Shown here one piece after another: positions 2,066 to 16,849 of a stretch of 64,000 nt of DNA. This DNA comes from Escherichia coli (GTDB lineage: Bacteria; Pseudomonadota; Gammaproteobacteria; Enterobacterales; Enterobacteriaceae): NCBI RefSeq assembly GCF_029227855.1, contig NZ_CP074356.1, one strand, 5' to 3'. Under the pieces are notes generated by a model, which saw nothing but the letters and a program-made list of their open reading frames with translations, made no database searches and was not told the origin of the DNA. Positions within the stretch are counted from its first letter, which is position 1. Each line of letters begins with the position of its first letter. Made by a program: the position numbers and the translations under genes.

Positions 2066-2866
2066 TTACGATAAATAGAGTTTACGCAGATAATGCGGCA
2101 CCGCGTCTTCGGCGTTAGTACCAATCACTTCCAGCTCGGGATGAAGGTCTTTCAGACGCTGGTGCGCACTGCCCATAATGCAGCCTTTCCCCGCCATCGA
2201 CAGCATTTCGGCGTCGTTCATCCCGTCACCAAACGCAATACAATCCTTCAGGCTGTAGCCCAGTTTCTTCGCCACTGCTTCCAGCGCATGGCCTTTCGAC
2301 ACGCCGCCCGCCATCACTTCCAGACAGGTTAAGGTAGAGAAACTGACGTTGACGCGATCGCCCCAGCGAGCGTTAATCGCCTGCTCCAGCGGCAGCAGTT
2401 GTTCATGGGAATCGCAGGTGAAAAACACTTTGCTGACGCCTTCCGGCTCCAGTAATCCAGGCTCATACAGCGCATATTTGAACACCGCTTCTTTAAAAAA
2501 GCGCATCTCTTCCGGGCGATGGCGATTCATAAACCATTCGTCGTCGCGATAAACGTTAGTAATGATGTCCGGATTGTCGTTGACTACGCCAAACAGATCG
2601 CTGGCAATGTCGCGATCCAGGTTATGAGCAAAAATCAGATTACCATCCAGATCGTGAACGCGCGCACCATTGGAGGTAATCATGTAAGACTTAATCTCCA
2701 GATTATCGCGAATTTGCCCCACATCAACGTGGTGACGACCGGTCGCAAACACAAAGTTGATGCCGCGCGCGGTGAGCAGCTTCAGAGTTTCTTTGGCGTA
2801 AGGGGATAACGTATGGTCGGGAGAAAGTAACGTGCCATCTAAATCAGACGCAACAACCTGGTACAT
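2066..2866 (-). CDS. yigL: HAD-superfamily Cof-type sugar phosphatase
   Basis: ORF track gives 308 aa; internal start MYQVVASDLDGTLL carries the HAD motif I (DxDGT) and yields the expected 266 aa; GDGMND motif near the C-terminus. Confidence 0.85.
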   Translation of the reverse strand: MYQVVASDLDGTLLSPDHTLSPYAKETLKLLTARGINFVFATGRHHVDVGQIRDNLEIKSYMITSNGARVHDLDGNLIFAHNLDRDIASDLFGVVNDNPDIITNVYRDDEWFMNRHRPEEMRFFKEAVFKYALYEPGLLEPEGVSKVFFTCDSHEQLLPLEQAINARWGDRVNVSFSTLTCLEVMAGGVSKGHALEAVAKKLGYSLKDCIAFGDGMNDAEMLSMAGKGCIMGSAHQRLKDLHPELEVIGTNAEDAVPHYLRKLYLS

Positions 2867-2873
2867 AAGAAAT

Positions 2874-3896
2874 TTAAACCTCTGTAGAGCGGTTTCCGCT
2901 GGGTGAGTTATGCCTGTTGAAAAAATCAACGATGGCGTGGAGCGCGACTGAGCGCATTGCGTCCTTTTCAAAAAGGATCTCATGGTAAGCACCTTTAATT
3001 ACCAACGGTCGTCCTCCTTCGACAGGATGGCCCGCGGCGGTGCGGAGTTCACAAAAACGGTCATGCATGCGGTTATCCACCACGCGTTCCTCTTCAGCTT
3101 GTAAGAGAAGCGTTGGCGTGGCGTCATCACCCGCACCGGCTAACACCTGTTCGCCAGCCAGAATACTTTCGCGTACCCAATGGTAGGTCGGCCCACCGAC
3201 GCGAATCGTTGGGTCATCAGCATAGAAGCGTAAGTTACGTCGATATCGCTGTCTGCTGTGGGTCAGTACGTTGATAGCAAACGGCAACGCGCGCCAGCGC
3301 CCGGTGCCTATTGCATAGCCATCACGGAAACGTGGATGCGCTTCGGCCCAGTTGAGGATCTGCCGTGCCATAAATGACGGCATACGAATCACGATCCCAA
3401 ACATTGGCGCAGTTAGCGCAATGGCGTCACATACACCTGGATGGCGTTGCAGAAATAATGTGGAGATCGCACCGCCCATCGAATGTGCCAGTATATAGCG
3501 TTTACGCCACGGACCGGGCTGAACCTCCTGCTGCCAGAATGCCGCCAGATCATCAACATAATCATTAAAGCGATTAACATGCCCGAGATGCGGATCGGCT
3601 AACAGGCGACCGGAACGTCCCTGCCCGCGATGGTCGATGATTAAGACATCAAACCCCAAATGGAACAGGTCATAGGCCAGTTCCGCATATTTTACGTAGC
3701 TCTCAATACGCCCCGGGCAGATGACTACCACCCGGTCATGGTGCTGTGCGCGAAAACGGACAAAGCGCACCGGAATGTCATCCACACCAGTAAACTCTGC
3801 TTCATCACGCTGACGCCAGAAATCAGTCAGCGGTCCCATGGTAAAAGCAGCAAACGCGTTTTCTCTTGTTTCCCAGTCTTTTTGCTGCTGAAACAT
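2874..3896 (-). CDS. pldB: lysophospholipase L2
   Basis: 340-aa ORF with alpha/beta-hydrolase GHSMGG nucleophile elbow; synteny. Confidence 0.9.
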   Translation of the reverse strand: MFQQQKDWETRENAFAAFTMGPLTDFWRQRDEAEFTGVDDIPVRFVRFRAQHHDRVVVICPGRIESYVKYAELAYDLFHLGFDVLIIDHRGQGRSGRLLADPHLGHVNRFNDYVDDLAAFWQQEVQPGPWRKRYILAHSMGGAISTLFLQRHPGVCDAIALTAPMFGIVIRMPSFMARQILNWAEAHPRFRDGYAIGTGRWRALPFAINVLTHSRQRYRRNLRFYADDPTIRVGGPTYHWVRESILAGEQVLAGAGDDATPTLLLQAEEERVVDNRMHDRFCELRTAAGHPVEGGRPLVIKGAYHEILFEKDAMRSVALHAIVDFFNRHNSPSGNRSTEV

Positions 3897-4006
3897 CGGG
3901 TAATCTGCCTCTTAAACCACGTAAAATCGTTTTTTTTAGCGTGCCTGACACAACGCTGCGACAGTAGCGTATTGTGGCACAAAAATAGACACACCGGGAG
4001 TTCATC

Positions 4007-4627
4007 ATGACCTTAGAATGGTGGTTTGCCTACCTGCTGACATCGATCATTTTAAGCCTGTCGCCAGGCTCTGGTGCAATCAACACTATGACCACCTCGC
4101 TCAACCACGGTTATCGCGGCGCGGTGGCGTCTATTGCTGGGCTTCAAACCGGACTGGCGATTCATATTGTGCTGGTTGGCGTGGGGTTGGGGACGCTATT
4201 TTCCCGCTCAGTGATTGCGTTTGAAGTGTTGAAGTGGGCAGGCGCGGCTTACTTGATTTGGCTGGGAATCCAGCAGTGGCGCGCCGCTGGTGCAATTGAC
4301 CTTAAATCGCTGGCCTCTACTCAATCGCGTCGACATTTGTTCCAGCGCGCAGTTTTTGTGAATCTCACCAATCCCAAAAGTATTGTGTTTCTGGCGGCGC
4401 TATTTCCGCAATTCATCATGCCGCAACAGCCGCAACTGATGCAGTATATCGTGCTCGGCGTCACCACTATTGTGGTCGATATTATTGTGATGATCGGTTA
4501 CGCCACCCTTGCTCAACGGATTGCTCTATGGATTAAAGGACCAAAGCAGATGAAGGCGCTGAATAAGATTTTCGGCTCGTTGTTTATGCTGGTGGGAGCG
4601 CTGTTAGCATCGGCGAGGCATGCGTGA
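4007..4627 (+). CDS. rhtB: LysE/RhtB-family homoserine/homoserine-lactone exporter
   Basis: 206-aa membrane ORF; divergent from pldB and convergent with paralog rhtC. Confidence 0.9.
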
Positions 4628-4635
4628 AAAATAAT

Positions 4636-4665
4636 GTCGGATGCGGCGTAAACGCCTTATCCGAC
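4636..4665. repeat. REP (repetitive extragenic palindrome) unit
   Basis: gtcggatgcggcgtaaacgccttatccgac, an imperfect palindrome of the canonical GCCGGATG...CATCCGGC family, between convergent rhtB and rhtC. Confidence 0.6.
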
Positions 4666-4688
4666 TTACTCTGAAGACGCGTCTGGCA

Positions 4689-5309
4689 TCACCGCGAAAT
4701 AATCAAATGAATGCCAAATCCGGCAAATAACGCCCCGGCAAAACCATCAATCCACTTCGCCAGACGTTGATAACCACGGCGCATTTGCGGCAGGGCAAAC
4801 AGGCTGGCAACGACGGTAAACCACGCCAGCGTTTCGACAATGATCAGCGCAAAAATGCCCCAGCGCGCGGTAGTGCCAACGTTATCACCGACAAACAATG
4901 AGAACACCGAGCCAAAGTAGATAATCGCTTTCGGATTAGCGAGATTGGTCAGTAAACCTTTCAGGAAACTGCGCCCACTTTTCGCCAGCTCGACCTGTGG
5001 CGCAGGTGCAGAAACTGCCTCTTTTTTCAGCGCGCCGCGCAGCATCTGGTAACCCATCCAGCAGAGATACAGGCCACCGCCAACCATAATCAGCGTATGC
5101 AGCCAGGCCATTTTTTCGATAATCAAATGCAGGCCAAGCAACGCAATCCCAGCCCAAACCATTACGCCGCAGGTAATGCCCAGCACGCCCATCATCGCTT
5201 CTTTACGGGAACGACTGACAGCGGTCTGAGAGACAAAAAAGAAATCGGGACCGGGGCTCATAAGCGCCACAATGTGCACCATGGCGACGGTGAGAAATAA
5301 CATCAACAT
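4689..5309 (-). CDS. rhtC: LysE/RhtB-family threonine exporter
   Basis: 206-aa membrane ORF paralogous to rhtB; synteny upstream of recQ. Confidence 0.9.
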   Translation of the reverse strand: MLMLFLTVAMVHIVALMSPGPDFFFVSQTAVSRSRKEAMMGVLGITCGVMVWAGIALLGLHLIIEKMAWLHTLIMVGGGLYLCWMGYQMLRGALKKEAVSAPAPQVELAKSGRSFLKGLLTNLANPKAIIYFGSVFSLFVGDNVGTTARWGIFALIIVETLAWFTVVASLFALPQMRRGYQRLAKWIDGFAGALFAGFGIHLIISR

Positions 5310-5372
5310 ACATTTGACTCGCGGGGGAAACGTTTACGGAGTCTTCATCCTGGCACTTTTTTATGCTGCTGA

Positions 5373-7202
5373 CTACTCTTCGTCATCGCCATCAACATGC
5401 GCACGAATCAGCGCCATAAACGGTTTGCCAAAGCGTTCCAGCTTGCGCATCCCAACACCGTTAACGCTGAGCATTTCGCTGGCGGTGATCGGCATCTGTT
5501 CAGCCATCTCAATCAAGGTTGCGTCGTTAAACACCACGTACGGCGGGACATTACTTTCATCGGCAATCGATTTACGCAGTTTGCGTAATTTGGCGAACAG
5601 TTTGCGATCATAGTTGCCGCCGAACGATTTCTGCATCGCTTTCGGTTTGAGCGCCACGATACGCGGCACGGCAAGTTGCAAAGAGGATTCGCCGCGCAGC
5701 ACCGGACGCGCGGCCTCTGTCAGTTGGAGGGCAGAATGCTGGGCAATATTTTGCGTCACCAGGCCGAGGTGAATCAACTGGCGGATCACGCTCACCCAAT
5801 GTTCATGACTTTTATCACGGCCCATACCGTAGACTTTTAGTTTGTCATGACCATAGTCGCGGATACGCTGGTTATTAGCGCCGCGAATCACTTCCACCAC
5901 ATAGCCCATACCAAAACGCTGATTCACACGACCAATGGTGGAAAGGGCAATCTGAGCATCGGTTGAACCGTCGTACTGTTTCGGCGGATCGAGGCAGATA
6001 TCGCAGTTCCCGCACGGCTCCTGACGCCCTTCGCCAAAATAGTTCAGCAGTACCAGACGACGGCAAGTTTGCGCTTCGGCAAAAGCGCCCATCGCATTGA
6101 GTTTATGACGTTCGATATCCTGCAACTGCCCCTGCGGCTTCTCTTCCAGACAACGGCGCAGCCACGCCATATCGGCCGGATCGTAAAACAGCATCGCTTC
6201 CGCGGGCAGGCCATCACGCCCGGCGCGACCGGTTTCCTGATAATAGGATTCGATATTGCGCGGAATATCAAAGTGGACCACGAAGCGAACGTTTGGTTTA
6301 TTGATGCCCATGCCGAACGCCACCGTCGCCACCACAATTTGCAGGTCATCGCGCTGGAATTTCTCCTGCACGTCGGCGCGGACATTATTTTCCAGCCCGG
6401 CATGATAGGCCGCCGCGCTAATACCCTTGCTTTGCAGGCGCGCAGCGGTGTCTTCTACTTTCGCCCGGCTGTTGCAGTAGATAATGCCGGACTTACCGCG
6501 CTGTTCCTGCACGTAGCGCATCAACTGATCGAGCGGTTTGAACTTCTCCATCAGCATGTAGCGAATATTCGGACGGTCAAAACTGTTGATTTGAATCAGC
6601 GGATCGTTCAGCCCCAGCAGGCGCACGATATCCTGGCGCGTGGTGTCGTCGGCTGTGGCGGTCAGCGCCATAAACGGCAGCGTCGGGAACCGCTGGCGCA
6701 ACTGACCGAGCGCGGCATATTCCGGGCGGAAATCGTGGCCCCATTGGGAGATACAGTGCGCTTCATCAACGGCTAATAACACCGGATTCCAGTGCGCCAG
6801 ATGCTCAAGAAAGTTATCCAGCATCAGGCGTTCCGGGGCGATATAAAGCAGACGAATTTGCCCGGTGCGGCAGCCTGTCATCACTTCAAGTTGCTGTTCG
6901 CGGGTTTGCGTCGAGTTAAGGCACGCCGCCGCCACGCCGTTGGCTTGCAGTTGATCCACCTGATCTTTCATCAACGAAATCAGCGGTGAAACAACCACGG
7001 TAAGGCCGTTTAGCAATAAGGCAGGAATTTGATAGCAAAGGGATTTTCCGCCACCGGTGGGCATGACGACCAGGCAATCGCGACCGGAAAGCACAGTGTC
7101 GATAATTTCTTCCTGGCCGGGGCGAAACTGTTGGTAGCCAAAGGTTTCTTGTAAAACCTGTTTAGCTCCGGACTCCAGATTCAACACTTCCGCCTGCGCC
7201 AC
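5373..7202 (-). CDS. recQ: ATP-dependent DNA helicase RecQ
   Basis: Walker A ([11 protein letters not shown]), DEAH box ([15 protein letters not shown]), zinc-binding CGNCDIC and C-terminal HRDC region; the ORF could start 2 codons earlier (7208). Confidence 0.93.
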
Positions 7203-7225
7203 ATTCACCCCGATTGCCTGAAATA

Positions 7226-7252
7226 AAAACAGGCGCTATTTTCAGCGCCTGC
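7226..7252 (-). terminator. probable intrinsic terminator downstream of pldA
   Basis: Inverted repeat caggcgct/agcgcctg preceded on the + strand by an A-run (a T-run after the hairpin on the - strand). Confidence 0.5.
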
Positions 7253-7334
7253 GCGAGAAACTGCAATGCTTTTAGTCTCTGAGAGGGTAATCCTGGATGC
7301 TGGATTCCAGATTTGCCAACCACTCAACCGTTCA

Positions 7335-8204
7335 TCAAAACAAATCGTTTAGCATAACCCCCACACCGACACGGGTCTGGTTGAAGTTATAGTCGATGAG
7401 CGATTCGCCATAGCCGCTGTAAACCTGAGTATAAAGGCGCACATGTTTGGTGATCGGGTAACTTAAGCCTAACTCCGCGCCGCCGTAGCCGGTGTTCCAG
7501 TTGTACTGTCCTTTCGCACTGAGCACCGCATCACCGAGGTGATAGCCGATTTTAAGCTGGTAGTAACCCATATATTTGGTGATATCCGGGTTATCGTCAG
7601 TATTACCCACCACATACCACGGCTTCACTTCTACCAGCCAGTTACCGTTTTCTGCCATCAGGCGAGTATAAAGGCGGTTCCAGCTGCGGGAGGTCGGGTC
7701 GGAACGCCCGTTAGAGTCGTGGTTATACCCCATCTCCACATCGCGCAGCGTCCAACCTGCAAAACGGTAATCGGTGGCAAAACCGAGGAACAATTGCGGT
7801 TCGTAGTTGGTTTCACGAAACGGTGAAGACTCTTCGCTATTGGACAGTTGCCACCAGGATTTTTGCGTATAAGACGCACCCAACACCGAGTTCGGGCCTA
7901 AAATCCCACGCCACAGCGGAAATGCCAGGCTCAACTGAAACTTTACTTCATCCTTACGCGCATTTTCCGCCCAGTCGTAACTGGCAATCGCTTCTTTATT
8001 CAGATCGCTGGTTTGGGTGTAAATGAGGTAGTTGGTGTCATAAGGATAGAGCGTGAACGGATTGTCATGCTCCTGCAGCATATTGGCGATAATACTGCCA
8101 CGCACCGCTGGCGCGTCATGCACCTCTTTCACCGTTGCCTCTTGTGCATATACTGCCATAGGCAACATAAACACCGGCAACAACCAGCCCTGCAGAGTCC
8201 GCAT
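7335..8204 (-). CDS. pldA: outer membrane phospholipase A (OMPLA)
   Basis: 289-aa ORF with signal peptide (MRTLQGWLLPVFMLPMAVYAQEA) and a beta-barrel sequence ending in F; matches PldA. Confidence 0.93.
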   Translation of the reverse strand: MRTLQGWLLPVFMLPMAVYAQEATVKEVHDAPAVRGSIIANMLQEHDNPFTLYPYDTNYLIYTQTSDLNKEAIASYDWAENARKDEVKFQLSLAFPLWRGILGPNSVLGASYTQKSWWQLSNSEESSPFRETNYEPQLFLGFATDYRFAGWTLRDVEMGYNHDSNGRSDPTSRSWNRLYTRLMAENGNWLVEVKPWYVVGNTDDNPDITKYMGYYQLKIGYHLGDAVLSAKGQYNWNTGYGGAELGLSYPITKHVRLYTQVYSGYGESLIDYNFNQTRVGVGVMLNDLF

Positions 8205-8368
8205 CGGTCGTGTTCTCCGTAACGAATTATTGATAAGGTGAATATTTTTCTGCGGGCTATTTTACATACTTAACTCCATAGCCGTTAGTTATCCCTTCCT
8301 AAAGTAGAAACCAACAACAAAGAAGCATAAAATCAACATTTCATTAACTAATGAAGTGTAAGGATGAT

Positions 8369-8836
8369 ATGTCTGCCGTACTGACCGCTGAACAAGCCCT
8401 GAAATTAGTGGGTGAGATGTTTGTTTATCACATGCCATTTAACCGCGCATTGGGGATGGAACTGGAGCGTTACGAAAAAGAGTTCGCACAGCTGGCCTTT
8501 AAAAATCAGCCAATGATGGTGGGCAACTGGGCGCAAAGCATTTTGCACGGCGGGGTCATTGCGTCGGCGCTGGATGTCGCCGCCGGTCTGGTGTGCGTGG
8601 GAAGTACCTTAACCCGCCACGAAACCATCAGTGAAGATGAACTACGCCAGCGGCTATCGCGGATGGGGACCATTGATCTTCGCGTTGATTATCTGCGCCC
8701 AGGCAGGGGCGAGCGTTTTACTGCTACCAGTAGCCTGTTGCGTGCAGGCAATAAAGTCGCCGTCGCCCGCGTTGAATTACACAATGAAGAACAGCTTTAT
8801 ATTGCCAGTGCCACCGCCACCTATATGGTAGGTTGA
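8369..8836 (+). CDS. yigI: hotdog-fold (4HBT-type) thioesterase
   Basis: ORF track 161 aa; start at MSAVLTAEQ gives 155 aa; synteny between pldA and rarD. Confidence 0.8.
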
Positions 8837-8887
8837 AGACATAAAAGCAGGTAAACTGCTGTTACCAATTAAAAATGAGTATTCCCG

Positions 8888-9775
8888 ATGGATGCAAAAC
8901 AAACGCGGCAGGGCGTATTACTCGCTCTTGCCGCTTATTTTATTTGGGGTATAGCGCCAGCGTACTTCAAGTTGATTTACTACGTGCCTGCCGATGAAAT
9001 CCTGACGCATCGCGTGATCTGGTCGTTTTTCTTTATGGTGGTGCTGATGAGCATTTGCCGCCAGTGGTCCTATTTAAAAACGCTGATTCAGACGCCACAG
9101 AAAATTTTTATGCTGGCAGTCTCTGCCGTGCTGATTGGTGGCAACTGGCTACTGTTTATCTGGGCGGTGAACAATCACCATATGCTGGAAGCGAGCCTTG
9201 GTTACTTTATTAACCCGCTGGTGAACATTGTGCTGGGGATGATTTTCCTCGGCGAGCGATTCCGCCGGATGCAATGGCTGGCGGTGATTCTGGCGATATG
9301 TGGCGTGTTAGTCCAGCTGTGGACTTTTGGTTCGCTACCTATTATCGCGCTGGGACTGGCATTTAGTTTTGCCTTCTACGGTCTGGTACGCAAGAAGATT
9401 GCCGTTGAAGCGCAAACCGGCATGTTAATCGAAACCATGTGGCTGCTGCCCGTGGCGGCAATTTACCTGTTTGCTATTGCCGACAGCTCAACCAGCCATA
9501 TGGGGCAAAACCCGATGTCGCTGAATTTACTGCTGATCGCCGCCGGTATTGTCACTACCGTACCGCTGTTGTGTTTTACCGCCGCTGCCACGCGCTTGCG
9601 TCTCTCAACGTTAGGCTTTTTCCAGTACATTGGCCCGACGCTGATGTTCCTGCTGGCTGTGACGTTTTATGGTGAAAAACCGGGTGCCGATAAGATGGTG
9701 ACTTTCGCCTTTATTTGGGTGGCGCTGGCAATTTTTGTGATGGATGCGATTTATACGCAGCGTAGAAAAAGTTAA
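8888..9775 (+). CDS. rarD: EamA-family permease RarD
   Basis: 295-aa, 10-TM-like hydrophobic ORF; synteny. Confidence 0.9.
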   Translation: MDAKQTRQGVLLALAAYFIWGIAPAYFKLIYYVPADEILTHRVIWSFFFMVVLMSICRQWSYLKTLIQTPQKIFMLAVSAVLIGGNWLLFIWAVNNHHMLEASLGYFINPLVNIVLGMIFLGERFRRMQWLAVILAICGVLVQLWTFGSLPIIALGLAFSFAFYGLVRKKIAVEAQTGMLIETMWLLPVAAIYLFAIADSSTSHMGQNPMSLNLLLIAAGIVTTVPLLCFTAAATRLRLSTLGFFQYIGPTLMFLLAVTFYGEKPGADKMVTFAFIWVALAIFVMDAIYTQRRKS

Positions 9776-9821
9776 GAATTAACATGGGTAGGCCGTTTAA
9801 AGAGCCTACCCACTGACTTAT

Positions 9822-10136
9822 TTATCTTTTTTTGAAAAAAATTAAGATAAGAAAAAGAACAATATTTGTTACAGGAAATACCCCCAAAACTCCCCAGTAC
9901 TTACTCCATCCTAGAGACATCGTATATCTACCAAGGATTTGACAAAACCCAAAACTTAACCCTATACCTATACTTCTTAAATTTAATGTCGTAGTCAGGC
10001 TTAAAATAAATAGAACAAGGATGGTAATAGCCCACCACAATAACCATGCCTTAACAAAATCAGATTTTTTGCTGTAAGGTTCTTTACCCAAGAACAACTG
10101 CCAAAAGTTACCATTTCCCATATAGAATCCATTCAC
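9822..10136 (-). CDS. small hypothetical membrane protein (104 aa, GTG start), low-GC
   Basis: ORF with 2-3 predicted TM segments (AWLLWWAITILVLFILSLTT; VLGVFPVTNIVLFLILIFF); AT-rich; may correspond to one of the small yigF/yigG-type genes of this interval, but I cannot verify that. Confidence 0.4.
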   Translation of the reverse strand: MNGFYMGNGNFWQLFLGKEPYSKKSDFVKAWLLWWAITILVLFILSLTTTLNLRSIGIGLSFGFCQILGRYTMSLGWSKYWGVLGVFPVTNIVLFLILIFFKKR

Positions 10137-10333
10137 CCAAGATATTGTTTATAGAATAAAAATACATTTCAATTATATTTAATTAAAATATACCCCATCA
10201 ATAAAAACTTACACACTCTAAATTACTACTGTATAGTTATCAATGCAAAGACTGCTATATTGCATATATATATGCAAACCACATAATTCAGGTAATATAT
10301 ATTCAAAACAATTATATATAAAACAGTGTAAAA

Positions 10334-10720
10334 ATGTTCAAATTATCCATCAGAAATATATTCTACCCATCCAGGCTTGAGCGTTTATCACGCTTTCAGT
10401 TCATAATCTATACATTAACATCATGGTCAATATTAATAACTTTGAATGATATCAACCTGGCTTTGAGTTTTATTCTGGTTATTAATAATACCTATGTAAA
10501 TATCAATATTGGAGCAAAAAGAATAAGAGATACTGGATGTAAGGCAATCTACTTTGTATTGATTTCATTGGGCTTGACACTTTTTTCTATTATCTCTGCA
10601 GCAATTGAAGGGATGAGATGTGAGTCATTAAGCGTCCAACTCAACGTGGCATGGATATTATTCACAACAATTATGTTATCTGCGATTCCCTCGGCTAAAA
10701 TGTCGCTGTCAGCACACTAA
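10334..10720 (+). CDS. small hypothetical inner membrane protein (128 aa), low-GC
   Basis: ORF with about 4 hydrophobic segments, preceded by a very AT-rich 200 bp region; ends 25 bp before the duplicated corA 3' fragment (convergent). Confidence 0.45.
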   Translation: MFKLSIRNIFYPSRLERLSRFQFIIYTLTSWSILITLNDINLALSFILVINNTYVNINIGAKRIRDTGCKAIYFVLISLGLTLFSIISAAIEGMRCESLSVQLNVAWILFTTIMLSAIPSAKMSLSAH

Positions 10721-10744
10721 CTTACTCACAGCGACATCGTATAG

Positions 10745-10883
10745 TTACAGCCAGTTCTTACGCTTAAAGTACAGATACGGTGTCAGGCCCGCGAGGATCA
10801 TAAAGATAATCGCGCCAGGGTAGCCGAAGCCCCACTTCAGTTCTGGCATAAACTCAAAGTTCATGCCATAGCTGGAGGCAATC
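10745..10883 (-). pseudogene. duplicated 3' fragment of corA (last ~46 codons and stop)
   Basis: About 135-140 bp nearly identical (about 8 mismatches) to 12456..12595 at the true corA 3' end; encodes ...[43 protein letters not shown] versus ...[29 protein letters not shown] in intact corA. Confidence 0.8.
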
Positions 10884-11071
10884 CGCGTAGGAAAAAGTTT
10901 CCTAATCGGTAAATTCAACATTTTGTTATTAACAATGAGCAAGACCAATCATTAACGAGGTTCTCTTCAGAGATGTAATGAAAAAATGTGAAGTTTACTT
11001 CTTTTTTAAATATTTTTTTACCCTAGCATTTGTTCTCGAATTGATATTGAGCTTAAATATAACCAAGGCAA

Positions 11072-11926
11072 ATGCAAATGAATAACATATTACTTCCGCC
11101 AATTAATATTCCCTGTACACTTTTCGAAACTATTAGTTTATTCGATGATTTTTCTGCTGATGATATGCAATATGGTGATATGGTAGAACAAGACTTTCTC
11201 TCACTCGGCCTAAGCGATATCTCAGCAAAAGTTGATCCTTACAGACTTATTAAATACCATTTCCCTGGCCCAGGTTCTATTAATGTTGCTTTTAGTGCCT
11301 CAAGTTCCGGAACAAAAATATCACAACGTGAATGCACTGATATTTTATTTGCAGAAATGAAAGAACTAGCAAAAATGCTTTCCTTTTTTGGACAATATAA
11401 AACACTTATCGAAGATCTGATTGAACATTTTAGATATGGAAATGGCAGCAATTTTCATAGCCAACAATTAAATTTATCTTTTCATGAAAAAATAAATAAA
11501 TATGGTTATAATAGTCCAATACGAATAATCAAAGAATGTATCGAAAATGGCATTAATTCAACTCCCTCGACAGGATACCAACCTCTTATCCTGCAAAGCA
11601 TTAAAACCAAATTACTTTCATCAAGACTAAATAAATTTAATGACTTCGAGGACAGTTTTAATGGCTTAGGAATCAGTGTTCATGATATTTCAGCTCAAAA
11701 AATATCTCTTTTAAGTTTTCAAAAATACGCTATAGGATGGAGTGCAACAATTCATTTTGTAGCACAGGACCACTTCGGTCTTGATGTAACTGATATCAAA
11801 AACAAGACTTACAGCAAATATAGATTTTTTCGCATATGGTTCTTTTTACAACGGCATAAAGACTTTGCTTTCAAACCTTTTTTCACCAATTTTAACACTA
11901 TCGAAAGAATCGAAAATTATCTATGA
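11072..11926 (+). CDS. hypothetical protein, 284 aa, no recognisable motif; first gene of a low-GC two-gene cassette
   Basis: Long ORF in a region of about one-third G+C; AAGG Shine-Dalgarno 7 nt upstream; no signal peptide or TM segment evident; stop overlaps the start of the next ORF (ATGA). Confidence 0.6.
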   Translation: MQMNNILLPPINIPCTLFETISLFDDFSADDMQYGDMVEQDFLSLGLSDISAKVDPYRLIKYHFPGPGSINVAFSASSSGTKISQRECTDILFAEMKELAKMLSFFGQYKTLIEDLIEHFRYGNGSNFHSQQLNLSFHEKINKYGYNSPIRIIKECIENGINSTPSTGYQPLILQSIKTKLLSSRLNKFNDFEDSFNGLGISVHDISAQKISLLSFQKYAIGWSATIHFVAQDHFGLDVTDIKNKTYSKYRFFRIWFFLQRHKDFAFKPFFTNFNTIERIENYL

Positions 11927-12414
11927 AAAGCAAACTCCAGAAAATTATATTATGTTTATTTCTTCTATGCTGCATCTATAATTTATGGACATTGCGTCCT
12001 GTACAGATTTTGTATACATACTCTGATGCTGGCAATTCAGTCTTTCTGGTCGTTGATCATCTGCCATGGACTGACAGCGATAAAATAAATTGGTATCTGA
12101 AGCATCAGAATGAAATTAAAAATCAACATCCCCTACCAGAAGGTAGTTGGCATACCTGGTATGTCATTGATATCGGTAATGGCTTCACTGACTATAAAAA
12201 ATATATCGAAGGGCCGTATGAAGATCTCTACTGTTTCCCGACAATTAAGAGCAATGATAATTGCATCGTGAAAAATTACTTAATGGTTATTAATGAATAC
12301 CCTTATCGTAACACTCATATTGGTATTAACGATTTTACTGAGTATCAATTAACACAAGAAAATAAAATAGAGCGAGTTTTCAATCCGCATGACTTTAAAT
12401 ACGACAATTTTTAG
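11923..12414 (+). CDS. hypothetical protein, 163 aa, with N-terminal signal peptide or membrane anchor; second gene of the cassette
   Basis: N-terminus MKSKLQKIILCLFLLCCIYNLWTL (basic then hydrophobic); Tyr/Trp/Asn-rich remainder; translationally coupled to the upstream ORF; ends 41 bp before the corA stop (convergent). Confidence 0.6.
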   Translation: MKSKLQKIILCLFLLCCIYNLWTLRPVQILYTYSDAGNSVFLVVDHLPWTDSDKINWYLKHQNEIKNQHPLPEGSWHTWYVIDIGNGFTDYKKYIEGPYEDLYCFPTIKSNDNCIVKNYLMVINEYPYRNTHIGINDFTEYQLTQENKIERVFNPHDFKYDNF

Positions 12415-12455
12415 AAATAAGCCGGATAAAAAAATAGCTTTATCCGGCACTCATA

Positions 12456-13406
12456 TTACAGCCAGTTCTTGCGCTTAAAGTACAGATACGGTGCCAGGCC
12501 CGCGAGGATCATAAAGATAATCGCGCCTGGGTAGCCGAAACTCCACTTCAGTTCTGGCATAAACTCAAAGTTCATCCCATAGCTGGAAGCAACGAGCGTC
12601 GGCGGCAGGAATACCACGGATACCACCGAGAAGATTTTGATGATGCGGTTCTGCTCGATGTTGATAAAGCCCATCGCCGCCTGCATCAGGAAGTTCACCT
12701 TCTGGAACAGGGATTCGTTATGCGGCAGCAGGGATTCGATATCTCGCAGGATTTCACGCGCCTGCTCCAGTTGCCCACCCGGTAAACGCGCCTTGCGTAC
12801 CAGGAAGTTGAGCGCACGCTGGGTATCCATCAGACACAGGCGAACTTTCCAGCCGATATCTTCCAGTTCCGCCAGCGTGGAGAGCGCCTCATCGTACTCA
12901 TCGCCCTGATGCCCTTCCATAATTACCCGGCTCAACTGCTCCAGATCGCTGTAGATATTTTCAATTTCATCTGCCAGCTGTTCGATTTTGGTTTCGAACA
13001 GATCCAACAGCAGCTCGTAGGCGTTACCGTCCACCATTGACTGGCTACGGGCGCGCATACGATACAGACGGAATGCAGGCAGTTCACGCTCACGCAGAGT
13101 AAACAGACGACCATCACGGATGGTAAATGCCACAGTGGAGTTACCGGCGTGATCTTCCGCATCTTCAAAGAAGAAGAAGGAGTGAATATGCAGGCCGTCA
13201 TCGTCTTCAAAGAAACGTGCCGATGCTTCGATGTCTTCCAGTTCCGGGCGGGTTGCCAGGCTCTGGCCAAGTTCAGATTGTACGCGCAGTCGCTCGTCGT
13301 CGTCCGGTTCGACAAGATCAATCCATACTGCATTTACAAGGGGTTGTGACTCTTCGACTTCCAGCCGGGTCAGTCGGTTATTTTCCAGTTGAAATGCGCT
13401 CAGCAT
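12456..13406 (-). CDS. corA: Mg2+/Co2+ transport protein CorA
   Basis: 316 aa from [12 protein letters not shown]; C-terminal TM helices with the YGMNF signature (GMN motif). Confidence 0.93.
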
Positions 13407-13775
13407 GACCGGGACTCCCAATGCTTAAAATATCGGACAGTTCGGTGGGCACACAGAAACAAATTGGGTTTCAGACCATTAAACAGCCTGACTCAGCGCG
13501 ACGGGAAAAATTGAGGTCGCTGACAACCGCTAAGGCTATCAGCAAAAAGGGATAGCCTTAGGAGTTGATCCTGGATGACAGGATAGTGAGCCAGTATCTA
13601 CTGGGTGTGTCCAAGGCGAATGTCCTCTTAGAGTGATCGTGCGCGCATGTTACGCCAGCAAAATTTTGCCGTCAACACGCAACAGAACACCACAGAACAA
13701 TAGTTGAACTTCGCGCTTTTTGGTACTCGTCAAGGTCGCTAACAGGATAAAAAAATCCAACATCCAGGACCTATA

Positions 13776-14540
13776 ATGGCGCATCGGCTACTCATTGGTA
13801 AAGGAATGATCACCTTGAATCTCAAACGGATTTTTCTCGCCCTCACCTTACTTCCCTTGTTTGCTGTTGCCGCTGATGATTGCGCACTCTCAGATCCGAC
13901 GCTGACCGTACAGGCGTATACCGTTAATCCTCAAACAGAGCGGGTGAAAATGTACTGGCAAAAAGCCAATGGCGAAGCGTGGGGAACTTTACATGCTCTG
14001 CTGGCGGATATGAATAGTCAGGGTCAGGTGCAGATGGCGATGAACGGCGGCATCTATGATGAAAGCTATGCGCCGCTCGGTTTGTACATCGAAAACGGTC
14101 AGCAGAAGGTGGCGTTAAATCTCGCTTCAGGTGAAGGGAATTTCTTTATCCGTCCTGGCGGCGAGTTTTATGTCGCGGGAGATAAAGTCGGCATCGTTCG
14201 TCTGGATGCCTTCAAAACCAGTAAAGAGATTCAGTTTGCGGTGCAGTCAGGGCCAATGTTGATGGAAAACAGTGTAATTAATCCGCGTATTCATCCCAAC
14301 GTCGCCTCACGTAAAATTCGTAACGGTGTTGGGATTAATAAACATGGGAATGCCGTGTTTTTGTTGAGCCAGCAGGCGACAAATTTTTATGATTTTGCCT
14401 GTTATGCCAAAGCGAAACTGAACGTTGAGCAGCTGCTTTATCTTGATGGCACGATTTCACATATGTATATGAAAGGCGGGGCAATCCCGTGGCAACGCTA
14501 TCCTTTTGTCACCATGATTTCCGTAGAGCGGAAAGGTTAA
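13776..14540 (+). CDS. yigE: conserved protein of unknown function (YigE-like), probable signal peptide
   Basis: 254-aa ORF with an N-terminal hydrophobic region (IFLALTLLPLFAVAADD); synteny between corA and uvrD. Confidence 0.8.
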   Translation: MAHRLLIGKGMITLNLKRIFLALTLLPLFAVAADDCALSDPTLTVQAYTVNPQTERVKMYWQKANGEAWGTLHALLADMNSQGQVQMAMNGGIYDESYAPLGLYIENGQQKVALNLASGEGNFFIRPGGEFYVAGDKVGIVRLDAFKTSKEIQFAVQSGPMLMENSVINPRIHPNVASRKIRNGVGINKHGNAVFLLSQQATNFYDFACYAKAKLNVEQLLYLDGTISHMYMKGGAIPWQRYPFVTMISVERKG

Positions 14541-14576
14541 AACGATAGTTTTGTGTCAGATACTGAAGATGGCGCA

Positions 14577-14683
14577 GATGCCGGATGCGGCGTAAACGCC
14601 CTATCCGGCCTACATGACGTTGCAATTTATTGAATATGAATGATTTTTTAGGCCAAATAAGGTGCGCAGCACCGCATCCGGCA
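14577..14683. repeat. BIME-like cluster: two REP units flanking an IHF-like motif
   Basis: gatgccggatgcggcgtaaacgccctatccggcctac and ggtgcgcagcaccgcatccggca with tgcaatttattgaat between them; lies between convergent yigE and uvrD. Confidence 0.6.
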
Positions 14684-14686
14684 ACG

Positions 14687-16849
14687 TTACACCGACTCCA
14701 GCCGGGCGTATGCCGCCACCAGCCATTTAATACCCTGGCCCTGGAATGCCACCTGCAAACGGCTATGCTCGCCGCTGCCTTCCATATTGACGATGGTGCC
14801 TTCACCAAACTTAGCGTGGCGTACACGCTGACCGAGCTTGTAGCCGCTGTCGTTCTCGACCATCGGCGTCCCCATCCGTTGATGGCTGACCGGACGACTT
14901 ACCGTAGCGCGCAGGCGCACCTCTTCCACACACTCTTCCGGCAGCTCGCCGATAAAGCGCGACGGGCGATGGTAAACCTCTTTACCATACAGACGGCGGG
15001 TTTCCGCGTAGGTCAGCGTCAGTTTCTGCATCGCGCGGGTTACACCAACGTAGGCCAGACGGCGTTCTTCTTCCAGACGCCCGCCTTCATCCAGCGACAT
15101 CTGGCTTGGGAACATACCCTCTTCCATACCGACAATAAACACCTGCGGGAACTCCAGGCCTTTCGCCGAGTGCAGCGTCATCAACTGCACTGCATCCTGC
15201 CAGGTATCCGCCTGCCCCTCGCCCGCTTCCAGCGCCGCATGGGAGAGGAATGCCTGCAGCGGCATTAAATCTTCATCTTCTTCGTTGTAGCTGAACTGGC
15301 GCGTTGCCGTCACCAGTTCCTCTAAGTTTTCGATACGCGTCTGGCCTTTTTCGCCCTTCTCCTGCTCGTACATGGTGCGCAGGCCGGAGTCTTTAATTAC
15401 CCGGTCAGTCTGTACATGCAGCGGCATATCGGCAGTTTCTTGCGCTAAGGCATCGATTAATTCCATAAATCGCTGCAAGGCGCTGGCAGCTCGCCCGGCG
15501 AGGGCTTTTTCCTGCAACAGTTCACGACATGCCTGCCAGAGTGTTAACTGGCGATCGCGCGATGTCTGACGTACCACGTCCAGCGTCCGGTCACCAATAC
15601 CCCGCGTTGGCGTATTCACCACGCGCTCAAACGCCGCGTCGTCGTTACGGTTGGCAATCAGACGCAGATACGAGAGCGCGTCTTTGATTTCCTGGCGTTC
15701 GAAGAAGCGCATCCCGCCGTAAATACGGTACGGCATACTGGCCTGCAACAGTGCTTCTTCCAGTACACGCGACTGGGCGTTACTGCGGTAGAGAATGGCG
15801 CACTCGGCAAGCGCCCCGCCGTTGTCCTGCCAGGTTTTGATGCGGTTAACCACAAAACGCGCTTCATCGAGTTCGTTAAAAGCGCAATAGAGGGAAATAG
15901 GCTCACCGTCCGCGCCATCGGTCCACAGTTTTTTACCCAGACGCCCGTTATTGTTTTCAATCAGGGCGTTAGCGGCGCTCAGAATATTGCTGGTAGAGCG
16001 GTAGTTTTGCTCCAGACGAATAGTTTCGGCACCGGGGAAATCATTAAGGAAACGCTGAATATTCTCCACCTGCGCCCCGCGCCAGCCGTAGATTGACTGG
16101 TCGTCATCACCGACGATCATCACTTTGCCGGTGTCGCCCGCCAGCAGGCGGATCCACGCGTACTGAATGTTGTTGGTATCCTGGAATTCGTCCACCAGGA
16201 TATTGGTAAAACGTTCGCGGTAGTGTTGTAGGATATGCGGCTTGTTAAGCCACAGTTCGTGAGCGCGCAGCAGCAGCTCGGCGAAGTCCACCAGGCCCGC
16301 GCGGTCACACGCTTCCTGATACGCCTGATACACCTTCTGCCAGGTCTGCTCCACCGGATTACCGTAGCTTTGAATATGATGCGGACGCAGGCCTTCATCT
16401 TTCTGGCTGTTGATGTACCACATTGCCTGGCGCGGCGGCCACTGCTTCTCGTCGAGGTTCATGGCTTTGATCAGACGCTTAAGCAGGCGCAGCTGGTCCT
16501 CGCTATCGAGGATCTGGAAATCCTGCGGCAGATTGGCGTCCATATGGTGCGCACGCAGCAGGCGGTGCGCCAGCCCGTGGAAGGTGCCGACCCACATGCC
16601 GCCCTGGCTGGTGCCCATCAGTTGCCCGATACGATGACGCATCTCCGCCGCCGCTTTGTTGGTAAACGTCACCGCCATAATCGAGTATGGCGAGCAGTTT
16701 TCCACGCTCATCAGCCAGGCGATACGATGCACCAGTACGCGCGTCTTACCACTGCCCGCGCCCGCCAGCACCAGAAGGTTGCTGCGTGGCGCGGCCACCG
16801 CTTCGCGCTGTTTGTCATTAAGGCTGTCGAGCAGGTAAGAAACGTCCAT
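14687..16849 (-). CDS. uvrD: DNA helicase II UvrD
   Basis: ORF track gives 783 aa; true start MDVSYLLDSLNDKQREAVAAP gives 720 aa; Walker A AGAGSGKT; UvrD/Rep family. Confidence 0.93.
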   Translation of the reverse strand: MDVSYLLDSLNDKQREAVAAPRSNLLVLAGAGSGKTRVLVHRIAWLMSVENCSPYSIMAVTFTNKAAAEMRHRIGQLMGTSQGGMWVGTFHGLAHRLLRAHHMDANLPQDFQILDSEDQLRLLKRLIKAMNLDEKQWPPRQAMWYINSQKDEGLRPHHIQSYGNPVEQTWQKVYQAYQEACDRAGLVDFAELLLRAHELWLNKPHILQHYRERFTNILVDEFQDTNNIQYAWIRLLAGDTGKVMIVGDDDQSIYGWRGAQVENIQRFLNDFPGAETIRLEQNYRSTSNILSAANALIENNNGRLGKKLWTDGADGEPISLYCAFNELDEARFVVNRIKTWQDNGGALAECAILYRSNAQSRVLEEALLQASMPYRIYGGMRFFERQEIKDALSYLRLIANRNDDAAFERVVNTPTRGIGDRTLDVVRQTSRDRQLTLWQACRELLQEKALAGRAASALQRFMELIDALAQETADMPLHVQTDRVIKDSGLRTMYEQEKGEKGQTRIENLEELVTATRQFSYNEEDEDLMPLQAFLSHAALEAGEGQADTWQDAVQLMTLHSAKGLEFPQVFIVGMEEGMFPSQMSLDEGGRLEEERRLAYVGVTRAMQKLTLTYAETRRLYGKEVYHRPSRFIGELPEECVEEVRLRATVSRPVSHQRMGTPMVENDSGYKLGQRVRHAKFGEGTIVNMEGSGEHSRLQVAFQGQGIKWLVAAYARLESV

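Follow-up and report, generated by a model that had tools for sequence, protein, structure and literature searches.

A corA fragment between rarD and corA of Escherichia coli as the probable scar of two stacked alleles, one with a predicted toxin/immunity pair

Results

A duplicated corA terminus fused to a remnant of rarD

We analysed the interval between the core genes rarD and corA in a 64,000-nucleotide stretch of Escherichia coli DNA (contig NZ_CP074356.1 of assembly GCF_029227855.1; hereafter the window), where a fragment of corA is followed by a predicted toxin gene, a predicted immunity gene and intact corA. The intact corA occupies positions 12456-13406 on the minus strand. The fragment, designated corA', lies on the same strand at 10745..10884 and corresponds to the last ~140 nt of the gene, encoding the GMN motif, the second transmembrane segment (TM2) and the C-terminus. 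It is the left copy of a direct repeat, the right copy of which is the 3' end of intact corA (12456..12602, minus strand), as identified from the list of open reading frames (ORFs) and a repeat search. Alignment of 10745-10881 with 12456-12592 gave 130 identical nucleotides out of 137 (94.9%, 7 differences), and gap-free extension of the alignment to 147 nt (10745-10891 and 12456-12602) contained 11 mismatches. Both copies begin exactly at the TTA complementing the corA stop codon and share the same orientation, and the sequence outside them is unrelated. A previous sequence-only reading of the window had described an imperfect direct repeat of the corA end in the same orientation, with copies that had diverged from one another, and the alignment bore it out on both counts.

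Over its last ~10 nt the 147-nt match departs from clean corA homology and overlaps a rarD-derived remnant and an apparent GCGT microhomology. The corA homology of the left copy stops at ~10884, and positions 10885..10899 on the plus strand (GCGTAGGAAAAAGTT) then match the 3' end of rarD. This 15-nt sequence, designated 'rarD, differs by one indel from the last 14 nt of rarD (9760-9773, GCGTAGAAAAAGTT), and the rarD terminus was its sole match with at most one edit in the 64-kb window, the chance expectation being 0.007. The tetranucleotide GCGT at the breakpoint is common to corA (…CGAGCGTCGG) and rarD (…GCAGCGTAGA), the exact crossover being blurred by later substitutions. A novel tail-to-head junction in the same orientation is therewith present at 10882-10899, separating a left unit (unit 1, from rarD to corA') from a right unit (unit 2, headed by 'rarD and ending in intact corA). 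The rarD gene of the window ends in …CGTAGAAAAAGTTAA; the remnant at the junction is of this window type and is identical in strains whose own rarD ends in the manner of K-12. Because the remnant is unchanged in strains with a different rarD end, it belongs to the junction and was not acquired by later conversion.

Each unit retains its own hairpin beside its corA end. In unit 1, an inverted repeat with 13-nt arms (10700..10737) lies directly 3' of the corA' stop codon, and alignment showed that the same sequence follows intact corA in genomes of the NZRM3614 type, which carry no toxin cassette. In unit 2, a terminator-like hairpin (12421..12448, minus strand) lies between the stop codons of the immunity gene and of corA; it is kept in every case in which the cassette adjoins corA, among them plasmid R27 and a contig of another genus (L023). 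Behind two different left cassettes, one of K-12 type (yigG-yigF) and one of window type, corA' carries common derived substitutions and an identical junction, which indicates a single founding event for the E. coli junction.

Predicted toxin and immunity genes of unit 2

The region upstream of the toxin gene (10900..11077, plus strand) was delimited by comparison with L002, an E. coli example lacking the corA' junction, to which it is homologous from ~10909. The following gene (11078..11926, plus strand) encodes a polypeptide of 282 amino acids of the DUF3289 (YPO3983) toxin family, with a score of 436.6 bits against TIGR03034 of NCBIfam (cut-off 156) and full-length coverage by PF11692 (E = 1.7e-83). 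A profile built from 34 homologues matched the PDB chains 9jdi and 9jg8, described as 'DUF3289 family protein', with E ~1e-27. An AlphaFold (AF2) model of the toxin had a predicted local distance difference test score (pLDDT) of 87.9, and the top Foldseek match of this model was the effector–immunity complex BtpeA-CTD/BtpiA of the Bacteroides fragilis type VI secretion system (T6SS) (9jdi_A, E = 1.4e-11, probability 1.0). The second was a weak match to the colicin-M-like bacteriocin PaeM (4g76, E = 0.02, probability 0.8, template modelling score 0.29). Residues invariant in DUF3289 include D29, H232, D239 and Q258; lipid II phosphoesterases of the colicin M type are characterised by the catalytic motif DxYD...HR of ColM and PaeM.

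The second gene (11923..12414, plus strand) starts in an overlap with the toxin stop codon (ATGA) and encodes a DUF943 protein of 163 amino acids (PF06092, E = 1.8e-26). Its hydropathy profile shows a single N-terminal hydrophobic anchor at residues ~6-24 followed by a hydrophilic body, in agreement with the published topology of T6IC1 (PMC11148199). A DUF3289 domain of Yersinia is toxic in the E. coli periplasm, where it makes cells round up, and its DUF943 partner neutralises it (PMC11148199); a DUF3289 protein of Aeromonas jandaei, itself an orphan, is a genuine effector of the T6SS (PMC12135965). By analogy, the 282-amino-acid protein is a predicted colicin-M-like toxin acting in the periplasm and a candidate orphan T6SS effector, with the DUF943 protein as its predicted cognate, membrane-anchored periplasmic immunity protein. 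Delivery by the T6SS of the host would likewise be expected in E. coli, having been shown for homologues in Aeromonas and implied for those in Yersinia and Bacteroides. The cargo would thus be a known kind of toxin/immunity pair, predicted to act as an orphan module of interbacterial competition.

Left unit, base composition and searches for mobility features

The left core gene rarD (8888..9775, plus strand; ORF list and RefSeq annotation of an identical locus) is followed by the cargo of unit 1 (9822..10720), which comprises, on the minus strand, a gene for a hypothetical membrane protein (9822-10121/10136) and, on the plus strand, a yigF-like ORF of 128 amino acids (10334-10720), both present in the ORF list and the RefSeq annotation. 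This cargo gave a weak NCBIfam match to PRK11371 (E = 8e-6), and Pfam searches of both ORFs returned nothing significant. It is a divergent, low-G+C alternative to the yigG-yigF cassette of K-12. A further 33-nt direct repeat (D2; 9899-9931 and 10716-10748, 73% identity) has one copy inside a hypothetical 104-amino-acid ORF and the other just 3' of the corA' stop codon. Its interpretation as an older scar from downstream of corA was set aside, as no corA-like sequence follows and the match is probably due to chance.

Between the repeat copies (10892-12455) lie 1,564 bp with a G+C content of 32.2%, compared with 50.3% for rarD and 52.9% for corA. The sequence-only reading had put the G+C content of the intervening DNA at about one-third, which agrees with these values. 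It had also regarded the low-G+C DNA as an insertion bounded by the repeats; the low G+C content was found, but it is not confined to that part, since the 9776-10744 region to the left of corA' likewise has 32.2% G+C. The whole rarD–corA interval is low in G+C, the sole interruption being the corA fragment with 51%.

The two predicted toxin and immunity genes are the only ORFs of the segment, and no recombinase family was matched in NCBIfam, Pfam or PADLOC. As the sequence-only reading had stated, no insertion sequence (IS), transposase or integrase ORF was found at the locus (ORF list, NCBIfam, PADLOC) and no tRNA; neither tRNA nor tmRNA genes occur in 7000-16000, nor do Rfam families in 8500-14000. 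PADLOC defence models matched none of the four ORFs. The search of the junctions at 10892 and 12455 for terminal inverted repeats or att-like cores, which that reading had suggested, yielded merely scattered AT-rich chance pairs. Features of an IS, a miniature inverted-repeat transposable element (MITE) or a transposon are absent: no pair of inverted repeats lies at these two positions, and what flanks the segment is a repeated piece of coding sequence of ~140 nt.

Distribution in E. coli

Population counts were obtained among 5,426 complete E. coli genomes. The cassette of toxin and immunity genes was present in 2,648 of these, at 2,655 places, all of them on the chromosome; the median genome had one place. 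About half of the genomes have no cassette, among them K-12, in which the arrangement is rarD-yigG-yigF-corA and which therefore also lacks this immunity gene. The corA' junction was found in 1,709 genomes (31%) and the whole window-type arrangement in 1,405; over 3 kb the window is 100% identical to the O157:H16 strain Santai. RefSeq, through the Prokaryotic Genome Annotation Pipeline (PGAP), already annotates corA' as an incomplete CorA pseudogene. The window-type left cassette abuts intact corA in 52 genomes, several of them O157:H7. In strains F11, E4 and CH10508, rarD-yigG-yigF is followed by corA' and the cassette, as it is in MB56, where the toxin gene contains an IS1. The order rarD-cassette-corA without corA' was represented by one genome looked at (L002), and ~930 genomes carry the divergent cassette type of L002 (80-95% identity).

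Searches of E. coli genomes and of plasmid and phage collections revealed the cassette neither at a second E. coli locus nor on a true plasmid or a phage. Full-length matches in the plasmid collection were confined to two chromosome-sized records, the remaining plasmid matches being an IS1-captured 98-bp edge in IncHI1 plasmids, and the single match in the phage collection was a Salmonella chromosomal contig. No paper describing the rarD–corA locus was found in the literature collection searched, where a search with corA, rarD and yigF was swamped by papers on 'coral'.

Several further observations were made on related sequences. A 1,699-bp chromosomal copy with 97.9% identity to the window is present in IncHI1 plasmids of Salmonella and E. 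coli (R27, pHCM1 and ~50 others); in R27 (L014, NC_002305) positions 2501-4199 correspond to window positions 12358-14056. The copy spans the last 98 bp of the DUF943 gene, corA and ysgD and extends into yigE, beginning directly at an IS1 end (…AAGTTGGCAGCATCACC), and looks like an IS1-mediated capture from a strain in which the cassette adjoined corA. IS1 has also inserted repeatedly, in several E. coli genomes (L003, positions 3313-4010; H6, H11 and H36), within the toxin gene or next to it; the toxin is inactivated and the immunity gene left intact. In all four strains examined that combine a K-12-type left cassette with the toxin cassette, PGAP flagged either yigG (L003, L016 and L020) or yigF (L021) as a pseudogene interrupted by an internal stop codon; K-12 has intact copies of both. 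The left unit may thus decay once stacked, these being four strains only, probably partly clonal. Finally, two short contigs assigned to 'uncultured Alistipes sp.' (L005, CASFSC010000051.1) and 'uncultured Clostridium sp.' (L006, USQA01000181.1) are 99% identical to the E. coli locus from rarD to uvrD; belonging to species-representative metagenome-assembled genomes of Bacteroidota and Firmicutes, they are evidently mis-binned E. coli.

The locus in Salmonella and other genera

A single unit of the order rarD-toxin-immunity-corA, without a corA fragment, was found in S. arizonae, in S. diarizonae and in the metagenomic contig of another genus. In the latter, the toxin-immunity-corA block is 75% identical to the window, a divergence similar to that of the neighbouring core genes (76-84% identity). 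The cassette of these single-unit organisms has a G+C content of 37-39%; since it is low in other genera too, low G+C is a standing property of the gene pair. Judged by this conserved position and identity, the cargo is an old resident of the slot and not a recent import.

In S. enterica subsp. houtenae the order is rarD-toxin-immunity-corA' (285 nt) joined to 'rarD (210 nt)-toxin-immunity-corA, which is a junction of the same type as that in the window. In strain ATCC BAA-1581 (L015, positions 2515-6733) this stack forms a 2,109-bp tandem repeat with a 1-nt microhomology at the join, and the same junction was present in a second, near-complete assembly (L028). Other strains have the right-hand toxin allele on its own. 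Of the 65 differences between the two copies, a 200-nt stretch of the toxin gene holds 42 and a 100-nt stretch of the immunity gene another 9. Such clustering is expected of a specificity-determining interface, and the stack looks like two specificity alleles kept side by side. The houtenae stack arose independently of the E. coli stack.

Outside this slot, the gene pair is located elsewhere in Enterobacter, Trabulsiella, Huaxiibacter and Serratia, often in arrays. Those of Trabulsiella guamensis (L011), Huaxiibacter (L009) and Enterobacter (L024) consist of full pairs followed by toxin fragments and extra DUF943 genes. Arrays outside the corA locus follow the orphan-immunity array pattern.

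Trimming, mosaicism, loss and decay

The junction-less arrangement of L002 was considered as the pristine ancestor and rejected. A 51-nt piece from the 5' part of yigG, with 94% identity to K-12, survives in it and is joined straight to the cassette at the equivalent of window position ~10909. L002 is probably a deletion derivative of the stacked form, as this fusion suggests. Comparison of the window (11078-12414) with L002 (1890-3226) gave an amino-acid identity of 85.5% between the toxins and of 99.4% between the immunity proteins. Owing to this disparity the cassette is regarded as a recombination mosaic with a breakpoint near the boundary of the toxin and immunity genes, and the question is raised whether one immunity protein covers both toxin alleles.

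The O157-related strain NZRM3614, which has no cassette, aligned to the stacked locus of O157:H7 in two blocks that overlap by 148 nt. The 3' end of its corA is a chimera, with the O157 corA' bases G5 and G15 and with corA bases from C120 onward, so that this 'empty site' was rejected as a pre-insertion state. In this one genome the absence of the cassette is, on the evidence of the chimeric end, a secondary deletion by homologous recombination between the ~140-nt repeats. In the comparison with empty-site genomes that the sequence-only reading had called for, about half of the E. coli genomes lack the cassette, and the one empty site of window type looked at is a product of its loss.

In different strains corA' carries the changes S>G, A>T or Y>D, the last beside the GMN motif, at positions of a C-terminus that is invariant in CorA. 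It also has patches in common with local corA alleles. Both features fit a decaying pseudogene that has undergone occasional conversion.

Discussion

A probable head-to-tail stack of two alleles of the rarD–corA interval

The arrangement in the window is probably the outcome of illegitimate recombination by which two alternative alleles of the rarD–corA interval came to stand head to tail, the segment between the repeats belonging to the right-hand unit of this stack. The likely structure is rarD - yigG/F-like cassette - corA' :: 'rarD - toxin - immunity - corA. Unit 1 would accordingly retain rarD, the last ~140 nt of corA and, between them, a membrane-protein cassette of yigG/yigF-like type, and unit 2 would retain 15 nt of rarD, ~180 bp of upstream DNA, the DUF3289 toxin gene, the DUF943 immunity gene and the complete corA. 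Since corA' is fused to a remnant of the rarD 3' end, the join points to whole intervals placed in tandem and not to an att site.

A single illegitimate crossover at GCGT, between corA at ~140 nt before its stop codon and rarD at ~14 nt before its stop codon, would suffice to produce this join. The recombining copies may have been sister chromosomes, or one of them may have been incoming homologous DNA from a strain with the other allele, and the event would have been resolved through an ordinary homologous exchange within one of the flanking core genes. Homologous exchange in the conserved flanks may also have carried the structure from one lineage to another, and the left unit appears to have been swapped, given that the identical junction stands behind two different left cassettes. 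Later changes comprise IS1 insertions in some genomes, repeat-mediated loss in one O157-related genome and, probably, trimming in L002, where a yigG 5' stub is all that is kept. The fragment corA' would have no function of its own, being a decaying scar that doubles as a handle for deletion.

Several observations weigh against this explanation. The remnant of rarD is only 15 nt long and contains one indel, and later substitutions, such as a C>G change in O157, have blurred the exact breakpoint (10882-10885). The presumed parent, with a window-type rarD end followed directly by the cassette, was not found in E. coli, where ~9 genomes at most could possess it. The region preceding the toxin gene (10900-11077) yielded no consensus sigma-70 site, and structure alone fits either unit as the resident or the incoming one. 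A scan of genome contigs returned nine loci, none of them from other Escherichia species, among which the donor arrangement was not found.

Alternatively, a single rarD–corA interval could first have been duplicated in situ, the cargo of one copy being replaced later from foreign DNA. Short-homology tandem duplications are common in enterobacteria, which counts in favour of this route, and the houtenae copies, nearly identical outside two short patches, fit a duplication followed by patch replacement. However, the right-hand houtenae toxin allele exists alone, and stacking of pre-existing alleles explains the houtenae structure equally well. The E. coli units have no cargo homology at all, so that complete replacement would be needed as a second step. 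Although the two routes give an identical final structure, we regard prior duplication as unlikely.

The sequence-only reading had offered two interpretations of its own. One, a cassette swap by recombination, was close to the truth in that a recombination scar flanks a cassette absent from many strains, whereas the event itself is better described as the stacking of alleles. The other, in which a small non-autonomous element integrated site-specifically at the 3' end of corA and supplied a replacement end, its integrase acting in trans or having been lost, did not survive and has very little probability left. Such an element would account for flanks formed by a direct repeat of a gene 3' end, with a left copy that starts exactly at the corA stop codon, for the low G+C content of the cargo and for the existence of genomes without the segment. 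But the locus has neither a recombinase nor a tRNA and lacks both terminal inverted repeats and a target-site duplication; on its inner side the left repeat adjoins a remnant of rarD, and the repeats are 93-95% identical over ~140 nt without a discrete identical core. Moreover, three Salmonella subspecies (arizonae, diarizonae and houtenae) and another genus have the cargo in this slot with no repeats beside it, and the analogous scar in houtenae has other lengths (285 nt of corA and 210 nt of rarD). No second locus and no mobile replicon carrying the cassette was found, and the one window-type empty site looked at, that of NZRM3614, is a product of deletion by homologous recombination.

It is equally improbable that corA' has been kept for a function, whether as a 67-amino-acid mini-protein (ORF 10745-10948, minus strand, TTG start; GMN motif and TM2) modulating CorA pentamers or as a regulatory or promoter element of the toxin gene, which is divergently oriented: the frame is open in all six stacked loci compared and the fragment is present in 1,709 genomes, but its amino-acid changes (Y>D by the GMN motif, S>G, A>T) affect residues invariant in real CorA, it has no canonical start codon or promoter, L002 has lost it and yet retains an intact cassette of a type found in ~930 genomes, and PGAP calls it a pseudogene.

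Significance of the proposed stacking

Both genes, the pseudogene and the toxin family have already been annotated or published; the modest additions are an account of how the scar probably arose, recurrent stacking at the slot and loss of the cassette through the repeats. Allele stacking would explain where the pseudogene comes from that is found in the RefSeq annotation of about a third of E. coli genomes. It also follows from the above that low G+C at the rarD–corA locus is not evidence of recent import. The locus may serve as a worked example in which ordinary recombination, with nothing else, adds, stacks and removes orphan T6SS toxin and immunity genes between two housekeeping genes. The polymorphism for presence or absence of the cassette, which concerns about half of E. 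coli and several allele types, could affect competition between strains in the gut.

More tentatively, and with the balance of probability against it, the rarD–corA slot might be viewed as a long-lived competition locus at which toxin/immunity and yigG-yigF-type cassettes are held as a trans-species polymorphism, repeated stacking anchored in the core genes being a selected route. If so, a new toxin/immunity specificity could be gained by stacking without loss of the old one, the core-gene stub would provide a RecA-dependent handle for cassette loss, and genes of the yigG/yigF type could be an unrecognised immunity or toxin module.

Comparison with known systems

The cargo belongs to the same families and shares the fold of the DUF3289/DUF943 pairs described for T6SSs, namely T6EC1/T6IC1 of Yersinia pseudotuberculosis, the orphan of Aeromonas jandaei and BtpeA-CTD/BtpiA of Bacteroides fragilis. 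It also resembles them in having the toxin gene before the immunity gene, overlapping stop and start codons and a single N-terminal anchor in the immunity protein (PMC11148199; PMC12135965). In contrast to those pairs, the toxin of the window is a stand-alone protein of 282 amino acids without a PAAR, VgrG, Hcp or WHIX carrier domain, its gene lies between two housekeeping genes with no linked T6SS genes, and its secretion and activity in E. coli are predicted from homologues.

With regard to architecture, the locus shares with the short-homology tandem duplications of enterobacteria its head-to-tail units, a junction of tail (corA') to head ('rarD), what may be a microhomology of 1-4 nt and deletion mediated by the repeats. 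It differs from them in that the E. coli units carry different cargo, which makes it a case of allele stacking rather than of simple amplification, and in being old and fixed in many lineages instead of unstable or transient. Similarly, in the orphan toxin/immunity arrays found 3' of rhs, cdiA and T6SS loci, alternative alleles pile up by recombination and leave truncated remnants behind, and the concentration of houtenae divergence in a toxin and immunity specificity patch is in keeping with those arrays. The remnant at the present locus, however, derives from flanking housekeeping genes (corA and rarD) and not from a toxin gene, and the left unit of E. coli has no recognisable toxin.

Genomic islands inserted at the 3' terminus of a protein, tRNA or tmRNA gene, for which they provide a new end, likewise have low-G+C DNA bracketed by a direct repeat of the 3' end and leave the target gene intact. 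Unlike such islands, the rarD–corA locus has no integrase and no att core, its inner boundary consists of what remains of the gene on the other flank, and its cargo is syntenic across genera with no second insertion site. The locus is regarded as a fairly ordinary case of locus evolution, neither a new mobile element nor a new kind of system.

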